Shown here: positions 35,806 to 48,851 of the stretch, one piece after another | How positions within the stretch are numbered: the stretch's first letter is position 1 | How the letters are laid out: every line of letters begins with the position of its first letter | Origin: Patellaria atrata CBS 101060 | Lineage: Eukaryota | Reading direction: 5' to 3' | DNA: 64,000 nt | Assembly: GCA_010093705.1 (NCBI GenBank) | Contig: MU006097.1 | Coordinates: 383,905-447,904, forward strand | Notes under the pieces: generated by a model | Databases searched by the model: none | What the model was told of the DNA's origin: nothing | What the model saw: only the letters and a program-made list of their open reading frames with translations | Made by a program: the position numbers and the translations under genes

Positions 35806-36772
35806 ACTTTTCCTTATCAGTGCTGTGGTTGATTGATGTTCGGGAGGGAGATCGAAGCGACAAACTTCCTAGGTACAATAGTCGACCCGCTGGTATCTGA
35901 TTGAGAAAGAACATGGGTCTCATATATGTGCAGCGCAGTATACGCCGCTTGATAATTTCTGAGTGGCGTTGTACATCTTATGGTTGGCGGAAGGGTAACT
36001 TTCTCGGATCTTCTCCTACCTTTCTTCTTCTTCAATTTTCTGCTAAATGAGATGAGAATGAATTTTATCGACAAAGTATTTCCACCCCAACTTCGAAGTC
36101 ACTTTCTGTGCTTCTCAATCGCTTGGTGCCCGATGGGCAGCAAATAGCATCGATAGCGTTGTTCTTTTGAGGGAGACAACCAGCTTCTCAGCTAACTCGA
36201 GTAGGTCTGATCCGGATATCTAGTCGAGCTATGACGAGTACCGTGTCGACCAAAGGTTCTACCACGTTCCTAGATCGAATACTTAACTTCCAGACAAGCA
36301 GTTGAAATCCTCCATCTGCTCCACGGCTTCTTGCTCTTCCTCTATCTCCGTTCAAAAGACAATTGCGAACTCATATCCCATCAAACGTGTTTCAGCTATC
36401 TACCGATTGTTGATAATGCGGGGATCGTGAGATTTCTCTACAGCAATTATGGAAATACTTCCAACTCGTGATAACGACCGAAGCCTACGATTAGCTCCTA
36501 CGTAGTACCGGTGCCACCTCTTCGGTTCTTAGGCAAACATACTAACCGCCGCCACCATCAACGTGGACACTGCGAACGTCTGTAATACTATCGTGAACTT
36601 TTCATATTGTTGTCGGGAAATTGGCTATATAATGATGGGGTGGTCATGCTCTCTTCCTGATCCGCATTTCTAATATCATTATCACTTCATAAGCTTCGAA
36701 ATTCGGACTATAGTCGTGATACGTTTTCAACTTCAATCTCATTTCTCTTTTGATAACTTTTCATTCAGTATC

Positions 36773-38800
36773 ATGGCATATCCCCAAAGAGATAATTGGT
36801 ACCCTCATTCTAGCCTTGTGAGGCTCCCCTCATCTCGCCATTACCGTCGTCCTCACGCCCAGTTGTACCAGACTCGTTCCCCATCTCCCCGTCCTGGTTG
36901 GAATATTGATTATGCCACCGCATTTCTGATCTCTCATCTTGAAACGACGGCCGAGAAGTGCAGCAAAGAACTGTATTTCTGGCGACACTCCTGTACTCCA
37001 CATAGCCTTCCAGATTGCCTTATCAATCTAGACCTCATCCTCTTTGATTCCAAACTCTGGGACCACATTAGCGTCATTCTGGAGCACTTGGGCCGTGAGA
37101 TCTCGGCATGTCTTGTCAAAGTTGCTGGTCCGGGGTTTCATGGTACACCGCTGGAAATTCAGATAAACGGGGATATGCACGTCCCCGGAGATCGAGATTC
37201 TCTGCTCGCCAGTTTATTGCATCAGATGATCCATGCTTACTTCCTTATTGTATGTCCGAGTGCTTATAAGAATGACGGGATGGATACAAGATTAGCACAC
37301 GGCTTCCATTTCGGTGCCGTAATGTACAAAATCAAAGATCTTGCAACCCCGAATAGCAGAAGACCGATGCTACCACTGGATTTCGGTCACCATCTCGGCC
37401 ACCATCTCCCTCACCACAGTCGCGCGAGCAGTGTAAGGGGATACCGTAGAACCAGCAACTCAACCGTTCGAGGTCAGCTTCAATTGCAGAGCTTCGCCTA
37501 CGCTGAATACGCTTACGGACGTCCTAAGCATCGTCAAAAGTATCGTGTAGCTGCCGAGTCAGATGCTTGCCATCGCGCTCAGCCAACCATTGACCGCGCT
37601 CAGATCGAGAAATTCTACGAGGAGAACTGTAAACCGCTCCTGGATGCCAGCGAGGTCGGACGTAGCACTTCCCTTTTCAAGCTTGAGGACAACGAACTCG
37701 TAGAGATTGGCCGCATGCATGATAAAGTCGGACGACCAGCGGAATATGTCGAACTAGTATTTGAGGGCAAGCCGGTCAGGATACCCCGTCCCGAACTAGA
37801 GAGATTCGGGAGTCTGAAAGAACTCTTCGGCGAAGGCAAGAGGGAACTCAACATACCAGAAGGCACGAGTTTCCACACATTCTCGCGACTGTGCGAATTC
37901 ATCACCAAGACAACATACGAGCCAGATATCCAAGAGACGCAAGTAGAGGACCCGGGAGACAACTACGGTCCTCCAGCCATTGTCACTCAAGACGACAAAG
38001 ATGACGAGAAAAGCGCCACAAGCGACGACACCAAAGACGAAACACCCTACCTCCGAATCGACACGCGGGTTTTCCTCCTCGCCTCCCAAATCGGGTTCTC
38101 CGAGATCCAATCTCACGCCCTCGACAGGATGAACAAACAGCACGTCTCCCGCGAAGACCCCGTCGAAGTGCTCAAGGAACTCTACGCCTCCGACGAACCC
38201 CACGAAACTCTCCGCCGCTGGTGCAGGAAATGGCTAGCCCGGATCCGCCCCCAAGCCGTCGAGGACAAGAGGAACGACCACCGCGCCTCCTGCTCCTGCG
38301 GCTCCGACCCCCCCACCGCCGAAACCTCCGTCCTCGAAACCTCCAACCTGGGCCTCCTCTCCACGTACCCCTCTTTCCGCACCTTGCGCGACGGCTCCGC
38401 TCGACTGGCCGAGGACGTCACACGGGTTGAGACTGAGTTCGAAAAATGCGCTAGGGAAGAGGAGAGGCTGCGCTGGGTGAGGGAGGAGAGGGAATGGCGC
38501 TTCGATGGTCGGGAATTTCCCTATGACCCGTACTTTGCCACCCTCTGTCCTCATTCCGCGGCGCAGCTTTACGTCTCCCCACATCTTCCGCCCCACGCGC
38601 ATACGCCGCGGAATCCGCATACGTGCGGGTATAACTCGCGTACGCATACGCCGGGGTCGTGTTCGTGCGAGGAGGGGAAGGGGAAGGGGAGGCCGGGTGC
38701 TATGGATGGGCCGTATTTGAGTGGGGGGGAGTGGTTTTGGAGGGGCAGGGATGGGGGGTTGAGGGTTTGGGATCAGGTGAGGGGGTGGGTTGGGGAGTAG
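36773..38800 (+). CDS. SprT-like zincin domain (HQMIH variant) fused to BTB/POZ-like domain
   Basis: Intronless ORF. LLHQMIHAYFL...HGFHFGAVMYKI matches the SprT HExxH..H layout. EYVELVFEG..FSRLCEFITKTTY..RVFLLASQIGFSEIQSHALDRM resembles fungal BTB. Domain calls are by eye. Confidence 0.7.
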   Translation: MAYPQRDNWYPHSSLVRLPSSRHYRRPHAQLYQTRSPSPRPGWNIDYATAFLISHLETTAEKCSKELYFWRHSCTPHSLPDCLINLDLILFDSKLWDHISVILEHLGREISACLVKVAGPGFHGTPLEIQINGDMHVPGDRDSLLASLLHQMIHAYFLIVCPSAYKNDGMDTRLAHGFHFGAVMYKIKDLATPNSRRPMLPLDFGHHLGHHLPHHSRASSVRGYRRTSNSTVRGQLQLQSFAYAEYAYGRPKHRQKYRVAAESDACHRAQPTIDRAQIEKFYEENCKPLLDASEVGRSTSLFKLEDNELVEIGRMHDKVGRPAEYVELVFEGKPVRIPRPELERFGSLKELFGEGKRELNIPEGTSFHTFSRLCEFITKTTYEPDIQETQVEDPGDNYGPPAIVTQDDKDDEKSATSDDTKDETPYLRIDTRVFLLASQIGFSEIQSHALDRMNKQHVSREDPVEVLKELYASDEPHETLRRWCRKWLARIRPQAVEDKRNDHRASCSCGSDPPTAETSVLETSNLGLLSTYPSFRTLRDGSARLAEDVTRVETEFEKCAREEERLRWVREEREWRFDGREFPYDPYFATLCPHSAAQLYVSPHLPPHAHTPRNPHTCGYNSRTHTPGSCSCEEGKGKGRPGAMDGPYLSGGEWFWRGRDGGLRVWDQVRGWVGE

Positions 38801-38991
38801 GGCTGTTCTTGATTGGGTATGGGGGGTATGGGGGGTATGGGAGAGTGGGAGAGGGGCTGTCGAGGGTTATTGGGGGGTGGGGTTGGGTTAGGGTTTTGTG
38901 GTATGTTGTAGGCCATTCCACCTAAGGTGGGAGAAGTAGATTATGCTAAGATTACCTGTTTCTTCTGAGTAGGATGAGATGGGGTAGGTTA

Positions 38992-39832: not shown

Positions 39833-40944
39833 TTAGAGCCGGCTTCGAGGGCCACGGGATACTTGGGGTATCCATTCCTCCTGTTGGGGTTGCCAGTTGT
39901 GTTTCTCGTATACCTGTGTACGTTTGTCAGTACGCTCTACTTATAGATTCAAAATAGGCTTATTGAGCTCTTCCATACCTCTGTAAACTTCTCGCCCTTA
40001 TGAGGGCCCGCCTGTTCCCTTTGAACGGTATATTCCACATTGACTGGGCCCTGCTGACCCCTTTGGCCCGTGTAATTGCCGTATTGCGCGTGCTGAGGTG
40101 GTGGTTGCGCATGAGCTCCATATTCGCCGTAATTGCCAACCGGCTCTTGCCTCCCTTGTTGATTCTGATATTCGTAGTGTCTGACGTTCCCTTCGACGCC
40201 GCCGTATTCCGCAGCCGGTGCGGCAACCGGCACCTGTCTCTCCCGTCGGTACTCCGTTTCCTTGTACGTCGCATTACCGCCTCGATAGTCTCCCGCTGGG
40301 ACCTGTTTCTCCCTGCGAAACTCATACTCATTGTACCTCGCATCCGCGCCTCCCCCTGGATACTCCTCCTTAAACCTCACATGAGCCTGCTGCTGCGGCG
40401 CATGTTGCTTATCCTTCGCCTCAACTGTAAACTGCTCATACCGATTCCCCTGCCCCTTCTCATCCTGACAACACCTCAACGGCTCCAACCCCCCCAACAA
40501 CGCCAACACCTGCAACAAGCTCTGATGACACGTCGCCAACTCCATCCGTCGATGTACCAACTTCTCATGCTCATCCAAAACCCAAATGACACGATTCTTA
40601 ACCCCAACATGCTTCCCCCGATCCGTATCCTTGCACACTCGTTTCGTATATCTATTGATCTCGTACAGCGCCTCATGCACGCCCGCCATTGTGTCCCGGA
40701 TCCACTCCACCTTCTCCGGGTTTCCCGATAACGCGTACTTGACCTCCTTGACCCGCATTAGGCGCTCCGCTTCCTCCAGGTCGTCGCGCACCCGCGCCGC
40801 GAGCCGCGTGAAGACCGCGTTTTCTTCCGCCACGTCGTGCAGGCGTTTGAGTCGGATCAGCGCTTCGCCGGCTTTGTAGATGCTGCCGACGGCTCCGAGG
40901 GCGGCGCCGACGCCGAGCGCTTCGATGAGTTTGCTTTTGGCCAT
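39833..40944 (-). CDS. HeLo-like/STAND N-terminal helical-domain protein with G/N/Q/Y-rich pseudo-repeats and spliced C-terminal PTS1 (-SRL)
   Basis: Exon 40944-39979 (322 codons), intron 39978-39914 (GTATGG..CTGAC..CAG, phase 0), exon 39913-39833 = VYEKHNWQPQQEEWIPQVSRGPRSRL*. Hydrophobic Gly/Ala first helix (LIEALGVGAALGAVGSIY), amphipathic helices and NRVIWVL motif. Confidence 0.72.
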
Positions 40945-44400: not shown

Positions 44401-47285
44401 TTAGAATAGGCTCCACCCCTTTCTCTTTTCCCTCTCCCGTGTCTGCGCTGCTCTAGACGTATATCTCTTTTCTCTCTGCTCGAGTTGGCGTAATGCCTCC
44501 ATTTCCTTAAGCACGTGCTCAAGAAGTTCTTTCCTACGAACGACATCCAGATGGCGGCGGATCTTGGGGTCCTCTCGAGCGAAGCGGTCAACCTCACCCT
44601 GTGATAACCCGCGGCCTAATCTGGCATCAAGCTCACGGGGAAACTATTAACTATGAGTACGGATTCAATTCCTCGGGTATGTGATCCAACTTACGAGATA
44701 GAAGAACTTGGACAGCAGATCTGCTTCTAGGAAAAGATCCGCGGTCTCTGTGAGCTTATCTGCGACGGCATCCAGAAATACCTCCGGACAGTAATACTTG
44801 TTTTTCTTGGTTGCGCACTGTTTTGACTTGACTGCAAGCAATCGCATCTTGATGATATCTGCCCTATCACGTAGGAATACGGCATCCCGCCCTGTTTTGA
44901 AAGATAAGAGTCCGAACCGAGAGTTTTTTATTACAACTTACCTTTATCCAAGAGGGAAGCGCTAAAGCCTCCGGCACCTCCAGCACCATTTCCTTCTAGT
45001 ACGACTTGTCCACTGCGGACTCTGTCAATGAATCCCATGACGTCCCGTAATTTCTTCTTTCCGCCGACCGTACTCTCCACGCTCTTGATGGCTTCCTCGC
45101 ACGTCCGCAACTCCTCTTTCAATACAGTGGAGATATTGTCCCGGCCTTTGGCCCACTCCTTGTCATCCGGCTCAAACTTGAATTTATAGGGTTTAATGCA
45201 AATTTCAAGGTCATCGCTGACTTCATAGGACAAGTCTTTCAATATTGATGCCGAGGCATCAGTAATGGCCTGACGTGCGAAAGGATGAACTGCGAAAGTT
45301 GAGGTACTTATAAGACGATTAATGTGTGCTTGAATAGAATTTGCGACGACACTAGTTGCTAAGCGCCCAATGCCCAGTTTTGTCAGTGAAGAACTCGACG
45401 CATCGAGCTTTAGGTGCCATAGGGGATTCTCGGGGTCCGCTTTGGGTAAGTCGCTCAACGGATCTGATTCAGAGGGAGGCGGAGAGAGGTCAACGAATGG
45501 TTTGTTCCAATATCTCGAAGCCAATAAATTCAGAACTTGCTGATCAAGCTCATGTTTTATGATCTCCCGTACCTGGGGTCGTCCGAAATATTCTGTGAAT
45601 CCCTTAAAGGAGTGTTTGAACGCATCTAGACTTTCCGCCAGATATGACTCTGCACTTAATGGACGCTCATTGTATTGAACTTTGAATTCATAAGTGGTCT
45701 CCGCAAGATCGTGTTGTATGGCCTCGCTGGTCGATTTAAGGCTCGATGCCAGTGTTTGTTCCAATACAAGCATAAGCTTCTTCCTCAATGTAGTTGTACC
45801 CACGTCCAATTCTGACTGAGGTCCGAATTCCAGAGGATGTGATGAGAAGAAAGCATTTTCATTACGAATGATAGCGGAACTTATATTCCCACTACCGCGC
45901 CGGAACACATTATTTAATTGCTGGGGTGGTTTCGAAATAACCCCAACATAACCGAGCCGTAAAGCATACTTCTGGTCAGTAAGCAAATCCACCGCTCGTG
46001 CAGGCTCTACAAGGTCCATCTTGGTAATGACACCTATTGTACGCTCGCCTCTTGGATCGACCTTCCTGCTTGCCCTTAAAGCAGTAGAATTGGCTAGATC
46101 GACATCTGCCGCCGATATTGCAAGAACGATGTTAGGAGCTTGAATGTACTTATCACATAGTTCCGAAATCTTCTCCTTTAACTCAGGAGGTTGATCCCGT
46201 CCGACAACTTGGATGTACCCCGGTAAATCTATGAGTGATAGGTCTGGGACATTTGGAGAATAGATACGGAGTTGTATAGGATCATCGGAGACACATTCAG
46301 ACGCAGGTACAGCAAGATTCAGATCTGTTAAAGTTCTTTGTACCTGACTGAAATCTGTGACTTTGCCTAGACCTATAGCAGGAAATTCCGCGTACTCTGC
46401 CTGAGCATCTGGGGTGTTTATCAGAGTCAATTCGATCGGACGGCGTGTGACCATATTATGTCCCTTAGGTAGGAATTCATGTCCTACAATAGCCTCGAGA
46501 ACCGAGCTCTTGCCTGAGGACTGAGAACCAATAACGACAATCGAAGGTAATGTCAATGTTTCTGACTGTCCTACAGTCTGGAGTAAACTTCTTATCTCTA
46601 TCATTTTTTTCGTCAAGAGCATCATTTGATCATCTCTGGCAATCTTCTCTTCAGAACGGGGATCATCTTCAGGATTCTTATCGTAGCCAAAAGCTGCTCC
46701 AGTAGCACCTCCAACGGCAGCAGCAGCGCTTGCGCTTGATTGCTGGTGATTAGAAGAACCATCAGGACCAGAGGAGCCTTTCCCATTTCCTGACGATTCT
46801 TCCTTACCACCCAAGATTTTTCGTAGCCACTCCGGTAGCTCCGCATTATCTTTTGTCTTCTCAAATCCATTTTTAGTCTGGTGGAACACAGTATTCGCTG
46901 TATCAAATACAGATCCAGCTGTCGAAGCTATACCCTCTTTCGTGCGGTTAAAGATATCAAGAGCGTAATTACCAGCCTGAGTAGCTTGATTTTGCACGTA
47001 TACTAGCCCGGCAACCGCCGCCCCTCCCCCCAATGCACCTAGTGTAGCGAACTTTTGAAAGAGTTTTGGTATGACACGGGCAAATCCCGCTATTGATCTT
47101 ACGGCCACAGCATTATGAAGAGCGTTTGTACCAGCAGGCCATCGCTGCCGTCTTAAAAGCGGTGCTCCTGATGCTGCTCGTAATAAACCGCCAGCATTGG
47201 GGCTTGCGGTGTAGAGAGTTCGTCGTGACGTGGAGAGTCGTTGAGCGAGGGGCGAGGCTCGGGTGGCTATGAGCCTTCCACTCAT
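44401..47285 (-). CDS. MGM1: Mitochondrial dynamin-like GTPase Mgm1/Msp1 (OPA1 ortholog)
   Basis: Arg-rich presequence and TM; VVIGSQSSGKSSVLE, VTRRPIEL, DLPG, TKMD. Introns 44941-44892 and 44694-44644. Ends KGWSLF*. Confidence 0.96.
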
Positions 47286-47549
47286 CTTATATATCCCAGG
47301 TTACTATTATCTTCGACCATAGGTCCTTGTGATGAGGTTAAAGGATGTTAGGTTGTTAGAGGAGGGGGATCGTAGGTGGGACGGTAGCTACAAGGTGTTT
47401 GAAATATGATGTAGGGCAAATCTTGCCGCATCTTCACCGTGCCAAGGTACACTACAGTACACTGCAGTATCTCCCCTTAACAACAACTTATTTAATCTTT
47501 GCGCACGATCGGAACGTGTACTCAAAGCTCCTCAGCATGTATCTGAGAC
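47286..47549. promoter_or_regulatory. Probable bidirectional promoter between MGM1 and MDM10
   Basis: Only 264 bp separate the divergent start codons. Confidence 0.6.
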
Positions 47550-48851
47550 ATGCTGGGGTTTATGGATTATGTGCAACAAGCATTCTACGAAGCATCGCAC
47601 TGGAATCATGACAACAGCTATGGCGCTCTTACTGCGACAGCGAAAGGTACATAAAGCTCGAACTTTCAGTGTGAACGCTCTATTGATTTGTTCTAGCTCT
47701 CCTTGACTTCGAGACACCGCCTGGTCTTCGGTTGAACCTCTCTTCTCTCTCATCTCCTAATTTTGCTACGTCATATACTGTCGGAAGTGTCGGCGTAGTC
47801 GATGGATCATTATCCTACCTTTACTCTTCGCTCCCCTTGAAAACGGAATCAAAGAGCAGCGACATTGACTTATATCATGTTATACGGGGCTACCGTCATG
47901 CGCAAGACCTGCGCAGACCAGATGAACCTTGGTGGTGGGAAATATGGCACGAGGGAAAGCGTATAGACAGGCGAGGTACACTATTTAAGCAACTCTAATA
48001 GGTTACAATCACGATGTTGACCATGTACAGATACACTGCTATACGGGCGTCTCTTCTTACCGCGGTCAAGTCTCGAGGCTCTGTATCTCCGACGCATCTC
48101 TCCAACGAGACAACTCAAAGTGTCATGCGTGAGCGACTCTTCGCTCGTTAACGGTGGAACCATTCTTGCGCTACTGCAAAATGATTATGGCAAGTATAGT
48201 ACGGAATATTTATATAGTACCGATAGTGCTCTTTTTGGGTTCCGTGGACTATATAATTTTGGTCTCGATCCCCGTAAAGCTGCGAAACTTTCAACATCCT
48301 CAACCGCTGCCGAAAATATAGCGATAGAGCCAACATATGGGCGGTTCAGCGCTGGCGCTGAATTGTACTATGGTATACTCAATAAAAGCGGAGGAATGAG
48401 TACTGGGATAAGATTCACCACGCTCCCGCAACATACGGGCTTTCCGTACACCATGACTTTAACTGTAAATCCATTGATGGGCAATCTCTCAACATCCTAT
48501 GCTGTTAAAGCAGGCCGAAGTCTCGCTCTTTGCTCACGTTTCGACTTCAATGTCTACTCTTACGAGTCGGACCTTCAGATGGGATTGGAACTGTGGAGAC
48601 GACAACAACCTACTGGGACAGTAGATTGGGCTGCAAAAATGATCAGAGCAGATTGGAAGAAGCCATCTTTGCGTGCTGACGAAGACATAAGTGGAGTTTT
48701 GAAGGCAAGGGTCGATCAGAACTGGAACATCGGAATCCTGTGGGAAGGAAGAATAAAAGAACTGTTGTTCACGTTGGGAGCTAGTTTTGATTTGAGAAAA
48801 AGAGATAAAATTGTAAAAGGTGTAGGAGTCGAACTGCAATATTCGTCATGA
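47550..48851 (+). CDS. MDM10: Mitochondrial distribution and morphology protein Mdm10 (ERMES/SAM beta-barrel)
   Basis: [24 protein letters not shown]. Introns 47647-47696 and 47976-48030. Motifs [33 protein letters not shown] terminus. Confidence 0.94.

Follow-up and report, generated by a model that had tools for sequence, protein, structure and literature searches.

The gene considered here lies on the minus strand of the 64-kb window (the whole stretch of 64,000 nucleotides that was analysed), and is best read as a two-exon gene of ordinary kind, spliced as in the public gene model. Exon 1 (39979..40944, minus strand) has 322 codons, starting with the ATG at 40944 and ending ...KFTE, and its product can be aligned to homologs from residue 1 onwards. 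It is followed by a 65-nt phase-0 intron (39914..39978, minus strand), which has the donor GTATGG, the branch sequence CTGAC and the acceptor CAG. The CTGAC occupies 39930-39926, with the branch A 13 nt upstream of the 3′ end of the intron. Exon 2 (39833..39913, minus strand) contributes 26 codons, VYEKHNWQPQQEEWIPQVSRGPRSRL, and then the stop codon TAA at 39835-39833. The terminal tripeptide, Ser-Arg-Leu, which has the form of the peroxisomal targeting signal PTS1, is encoded at 39836..39844 (minus strand). The GC content of the intron is 0.38, as against 0.58 and 0.54 for the exons. When the frame is read without splicing, it ends VWKSSISLF, with a stop 9 codons into the intron.

All 286 GT..AG pairs with a donor within the last 396 nt of the open reading frame (ORF) and an intron length of 42–251 nt were enumerated. 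The combination of a GTRNGN donor, a CTRAY branch and a YAG acceptor is found in just one of them, namely the 39978-39914 intron, and because this is the sole pass the intron call is beyond chance. The first-pass annotation of this DNA had proposed the same phase-0 intron with the same three signals, and this is confirmed in the letters, with the exon ending RSRL-stop; translation likewise bears out its suggestion that splicing replaces the ending VWKSSISLF by an SRL end. The basic residue that it placed just upstream of SRL is an arginine at position −4, and there is another at −7. It also described the terminal exon as hidden, which does not hold: the exon is already present, with the intron and the SRL end, in a public 348-residue model. 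The spliced translation is identical at every letter to the hypothetical protein M501DRAFT_993038 (NCBI; P0003 in our numbering) of the dothideomycete saprobe Patellaria atrata CBS 101060, which means that the SRL gene model has been publicly available ever since annotation of the genome. The view of ORFs from which the first-pass annotation was made had no intron modelling. Annotation by the JGI pipeline is mentioned in excerpts of the genome paper (PMC7082219), in which no transcript support for P. atrata was found. The contigs of two sequencing runs (X1 and X2, from one sample and one study) are unbroken over genes and spacers, which indicates that these runs are DNA; they show no joint at the intron and have no bearing on expression or splicing.

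The neighbours within the window are housekeeping genes only; none is peroxisomal, and there is neither an NLR nor a PF17111 protein among them. They include a RBBP4-like WD40 protein, a Ras GTPase, an adenosine deaminase, a GST, a peroxidase, a pseudouridine synthase, a DnaJ protein and a Zn2Cys6 factor. An MGM1-type dynamin (44934-47300, minus strand) adjoins MDM10 (48021-48848, plus strand), forming a mitochondrial-morphology pair. A 708-codon ORF (36674-38797, plus strand) has an SprT-like match that falls short of the threshold (E 5e-5; 23.5 bits, where the cut-off is 25.6), and at its 3′ end there is a G-rich tract (38640-38900) containing GGGGTATGGGG-type repeats. The contigs of one run break within this tract at 38753, where the loose end consists of 15 G.

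The structure of the protein was predicted using AlphaFold2. The conserved N-terminal domain, delimited by the model and the alignment, comprises codons 1-160 (40465..40944, minus strand). With an alignment of 95 sequences, the N-terminal 165 residues gave a mean pLDDT of 90.7 and a pTM of 0.75, and the domain is confidently modelled as a four-helix bundle, with long helices at residues 4-36, 38-63, 76-108 and 115-153 and a short helix at 66-72. The start of helix 1 (codons 4-22, 40879..40935, minus strand; SKLIEALGVGAALGAVGSI) is rich in glycine and alanine and is hydrophobic on the Kyte-Doolittle scale. The maximum over 19 residues is 1.34 in Patellaria and 0.99-1.86 across 17 orthologs, in nine of which it is transmembrane-like (1.6-1.86). 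Directly behind the bundle, 21 of the 48 close members have a Cys-Cys pair (LEP-x-x-CC; residues 155-160, window about 40465-40482, minus strand), which could be an acylation or a metal site.

The remainder of the protein has a pLDDT below 50 (residues 164-348). Codons 164-322 (39979..40455, minus strand) form a region predicted to be disordered from the pLDDT and the composition, which is rich in G, Q, E, Y, A and R. Most orthologs have linkers with abundant Glu, Arg and Asp; in Patellaria the abundant residues are Gly, Gln, Glu and Tyr. In three orthologs the linker clearly repeats in tandem, with periods of 18, 21 and 19 residues, while in the Patellaria linker no regular repeat rises above shuffled sequences (best lag −0.27, shuffle mean −0.25). 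The homologs P0006 and P0008 have near-identical N-terminal domains and are 78% identical overall, and their linkers differ by whole 18-residue units of the form xRETVxxRExEVYERxEP, which suggests that the charged linker evolves through gain and loss of repeats.

A Pfam search of the 348-residue protein returned no family matches, and thus no HEX-1 (eIF-5A-like) domain. The N-terminus had been called HeLo-like in the first-pass annotation, and this is not borne out: 156 family members were compared with PF14479, PF17111 and PF17107 (HeLo, HeLo-like and SesA) at thresholds of E≤10, E≤0.01 or E≤0.1 depending on the batch, and not one matched; fold searches gave generic helical bundles only. The same 156 members have no Pfam match to NACHT, NB-ARC or prion domains. 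The C-terminal region, which is charged, disordered and prone to repeats, contains no recognisable amyloid motif. When the family profile was compared with the sequences of solved structures, only low-complexity matches were found (huntingtin, TBP), and Foldseek against the PDB gave nothing at E≤1e-3. The best Z scores from VIA-align were 10.8 and 10.4, where the background of that tool for helical bundles is roughly 13, and HET-s HeLo and MLKL are absent among the matches listed (the best 50 of each of three fold searches). NINJ1 is the top row of the second VIA-align of the model m4ee4b421a780 (residues 28-147; Z 10.4, rmsd 3.6, 106 aligned), and further matches were to a wheat CC-resistosome chain (Z 8.6) and NINJ2 (Z 8.5). 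These ties with NINJ1, NINJ2 and the CC-resistosome were given no weight, given that vinculin tail, FAT domains and designed bundles tie with them.

There are two weak leads in the direction of HeLo. A language-model Atlas gives sub-threshold similarities of 0.86-0.88 to clusters in which 10-13% of the members are PF17111 or SesA proteins, and two homologs carry the UniRef name 'Fungal N-terminal domain-containing protein'. Like HeLo-like domains, the Patellaria domain is an N-terminal all-helical bundle of some 155 residues, confined to fungi, with small hydrophobic residues at the start of helix 1 and a repeat-prone C-terminal region behind it. According to excerpts of PMC4986451, HeLo-like domains are defined through HMM signatures and are found mostly on NACHT NLRs. 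Unlike them, the Patellaria family has no HMM match, no NACHT or NB-ARC partner, no amyloid motif and no specific fold match. A distant relationship of the bundle to HeLo-like domains is possible.

A HMMER profile made from five close homologs was searched against 1.84 billion representative sequences, and gave 320 matches at E≤1e-3, 191 at E≤1e-10 and 69 at E≤1e-30. These define an ascomycete family that has no Pfam entry and for which our literature search found no published name. It can be aligned only over the first 155-160 residues, beyond which its members vary in length and sequence and their middle parts defy alignment. The family occurs in some Dothideomycetes, in Clonostachys and in metagenome fungi.

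A tree was made from the N-terminal parts of 92 rows, namely those of P0003-P0091 with at least 180 residues, P0091 itself, and P0156-P0165; other rows shorter than 180 residues and P0092-P0155 were left out. It splits into two halves of 47 and 45 rows, with an SH-aLRT of 100. The half with 47 rows has 14 canonical [SAC][KRH][LM] ends and five near-canonical ones (SRI, SKF, TKL, SNL and THL), leaving 28 without a PTS1-like end, as compared to no PTS1-like ends at all in the other half. Ordered by search rank, the 38 best matches include 10 canonical ends and the following 115 include one. That one is P0091, a short Cenococcum protein, which the tree places in the PTS1 clade. The only members from Sordariomycetes are those of three Clonostachys species (P0037, P0156 and P0158), and they are nested in a group of 12 rows (SH-aLRT 100) together with the dothideomycete Verruconis gallopava (P0161) and metagenome sequences. 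This patchy distribution in Clonostachys and Verruconis could reflect gene transfer or wide loss.

All 13 members of the PTS1 clade that come from genomes annotated at NCBI end in a PTS1-like tripeptide, which is canonical S[RK]L in ten. The end is SRL in Patellaria, Rhizodiscina lignyota, Mytilinidion resinicola, Pseudovirgaria hyperparasitica, Amniculicola lignicola and Cenococcum geophilum, and SKL in Verruconis gallopava and the three Clonostachys species. The first-pass annotation had asked whether homologs keep [SA][RK]L, and for these ten the answer is yes; the other three have SRI (Microthyrium microscopicum), SKF (Delitschia confertaspora) and THL (Aulographum hederae). Among the 19 PTS1-like ends of the clade, 17 have S and two have T at position −3; position −2 is occupied by R ten times, by K seven times, and by H and N once each; and 16 of the ends finish in L, with I, F and M found once each at this position, −1. 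These substitutions belong to the classes that the PTS1 receptor PEX5 tolerates. Ends of the S[RK]L type are kept down to about 30-50% identity, even though the middles of the proteins have diverged past alignment, and proteins with PTS1-like ends have an overall identity of just 30-39%.

The SRL of Patellaria, followed directly by TAA, fits the class of [SAC][KRH][LM] tripeptides at the extreme C-terminus. A favourable context for PTS1 consists of basic residues, no acidic ones, and an accessible flexible tail. The last 11 residues of the Patellaria protein, PQVSRGPRSRL, contain three Arg and no Asp or Glu, and the tail is expected to be flexible and exposed because it lies in the part that AlphaFold2 predicts to be disordered. 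From the clade-wide ends and this predicted disorder, the SRL end very probably is a working PTS1, as the first-pass annotation had supposed.

Conservation also extends upstream of the tripeptide, in a weak pattern: [WY]-P stands nearby, positions −4 to −7 carry W or P, and 10 of the 19 ends have P at −11, which gives a tail consensus of roughly P-x(3-6)-[WY]-P-x-S-[RK]-L. This is more than PEX5 binding is known to require, and it speaks for a different reading, in which the tail is not a PTS1 and [WY]-P-x-S-[RK]-L serves some other partner, the protein being either cytosolic or anchored in another membrane by its N-terminal helix. The hydropathy of helix 1, which reaches 1.86, would suit such an anchor, and the non-canonical tripeptides of three of the 13 annotated orthologs count against a PTS1. 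Set against this, the variation in the last three residues (S/T, then R/K/H/N, then L/M/I/F) is what is expected for a PTS1 under selection, and the signal occupies the very C-terminus of a tail predicted to be disordered. We know of no other motif family with an end of the type [WY]-P-x-S-[RK]-L. We regard this alternative as unlikely. It is barely credible that the gene is unexpressed or decaying and that its SRL end arose in the gene model by coincidence, given that the reading frame is intact, the N-terminal domain has 40-53% identity with many relatives, and the SRL-type end recurs throughout the clade.

The reading that we prefer, and consider probable on the sequence evidence, is that the 348-residue protein is a PEX5 cargo, imported into the peroxisome matrix and belonging to a clade of an unnamed family in which the PTS1 is conserved. 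The exposed SRL tail would be bound by PEX5, and the folded protein would then be imported into the matrix. Inside the peroxisome, the bundle would most likely lie on the inner face of the membrane or associate with itself, with the linker acting as a spacer, although our confidence in this role for the bundle is much lower than in the import itself. Before PEX5 comes into play, the hydrophobic helix 1 could already steer the protein to a different membrane.

The 28 rows of the clade that lack a PTS1-like end are, wherever the source was looked up (as it was for the 38 best matches other than P0017, P0030 and P0040), all gene calls from metagenome, Logan or ENA data. For the P0007 gene, the DNA (L002) shows that the called ORF continues into a donor, GTGAGA. 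The intron that begins there (1172-1227) is 56 nt long and in phase 0, with the branch CTGAC and the acceptor CAG, and it is followed by a last exon MYHSERDDDVTIRERRDVPIRAHWPMDRSRL and a stop, so that the protein ends HWPMDRSRL. The PTS1 is therefore missing from the gene call because the last exon was missed. In the P0017 gene (L001) the ORF runs into GTATGA...GCTAAC...CAG at the matching place, and the contig terminates within the last exon.

Protein sequences carry the same signature. P0163 and P0036 are 82% identical and diverge exactly after ...GSDE, which is the expected donor site and beyond which P0036 reads YVKRTVVEERVENDVPLRVHWPTKL. Six further metagenome calls switch to unrelated sequence that begins with V, often VS, which is the reading of a GTAAGT-like donor. 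It appears that protein calls for fungi from metagenomes often drop a short last exon, and the targeting signal with it, and that read-through of this kind is a systematic artefact for counts of C-terminal signals in metagenome-derived collections.

In Patellaria, L002 and L001 alike, the codon ahead of the phase-0 intron is Glu. Based on these three DNA sequences, of which two are metagenome loci, and on the read-through signatures in the proteins, the intron directly ahead of the last 26-31 codons is judged to be old. Four metagenome members (P0006, P0013, P0033 and P0035) have the PTS1 inside one uninterrupted called ORF, which means that the intron was lost or that spliced RNA was the template of the assembly.

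Built on the first-pass annotation, a rival model takes the N-terminal domain to be a HeLo-like module that attacks membranes, and has regulated retention of the last intron decide whether the protein is locked away in peroxisomes or Woronin bodies or, lacking the PTS1, stays in the cytosol. Several observations are compatible with this. In Patellaria, as in L002, the PTS1 is encoded wholly downstream of the last intron; were the Patellaria intron retained, translation would stop 9 codons into it. The intron is at the matching place in two distant relatives, and the read-through tails begin there. The weak leads to PF17111 and SesA and the Gly/Ala-rich helix 1 point the same way. Fungal alternative splicing that adds a PTS1 to enzymes was reportedly described by Freitag et al. 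in 2012. In GAPDH and PGK of Ustilago and Aspergillus, and in malate dehydrogenase of Yarrowia, a PTS1 is gained by alternative splicing or by read-through of the stop codon, and genes of the GAPDH/PGK type share with the Patellaria gene a PTS1 located beyond an intron near the 3′ end. Parts of PMC3798809 and PMC3713238 likewise describe how fungi add PTS1 to glycolytic and other enzymes by alternative splicing.

The difference is that two isoforms have been demonstrated for the GAPDH/PGK-type genes, with a cytosolic enzyme as the main form, whereas in Patellaria the PTS1 form is the sole form annotated. Any intron with an in-frame stop truncates the protein if it is retained, so nothing about regulation follows from the stop within this one. 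Fungal intron positions are commonly conserved, and four metagenome members carry the PTS1 in an uninterrupted ORF, as noted above. Nor does the required domain appear, since there are no HeLo, HeLo-like or SesA matches among 156 members, no NACHT or other domain, and structural matches no better than the helical-bundle background. The model as a whole is very unlikely. Splicing of the last intron is most likely constitutive, and we infer that the intron, old as it is, merely happens to precede the last 26-31 codons.

Sorting to Woronin bodies is pure conjecture. The terminal tripeptide of the Woronin body protein HEX-1 is also SRL. Like HEX-1 and other PTS1 matrix proteins, the Patellaria protein has its PTS1 at the extreme C-terminus, in a tail that is predicted to be exposed, with basic residues upstream. 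A section of PMC3713238 states that Hex1 is targeted via PTS1. However, the Patellaria protein has no relation in sequence or domains to HEX-1 or to the known matrix enzymes, and because its family is limited to some Dothideomycetes, Clonostachys and metagenome fungi it is not a core component of Woronin bodies.

The more elaborate version of this idea, to which we give very little credence, would have the bundle distantly akin to membrane rupturers of the HeLo-like, SesA or NINJ1 type, stored in peroxisomes or Woronin bodies by means of the PTS1 and acting on membranes either from the lumen or once the organelle is damaged, with the old intron allowing a cytosolic form. The literature that was searched contains no description of a HeLo-type domain joined with peroxisomal targeting. 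It is concluded that neither a hidden exon, nor a splicing switch, nor a sequestered pore-former is established at this locus.

We return to the reading as a PEX5 cargo of the peroxisome matrix. If this prediction holds, a non-enzymatic, lineage-restricted protein, built from a helical bundle, a charged disordered linker and a PTS1, would join the inventory of fungal peroxisomes. The clade offers a clean test case, in that it combines a conserved signal with no known domain and has culturable members such as Clonostachys, and it may be used to ask what structural or membrane-active proteins do within peroxisomes.
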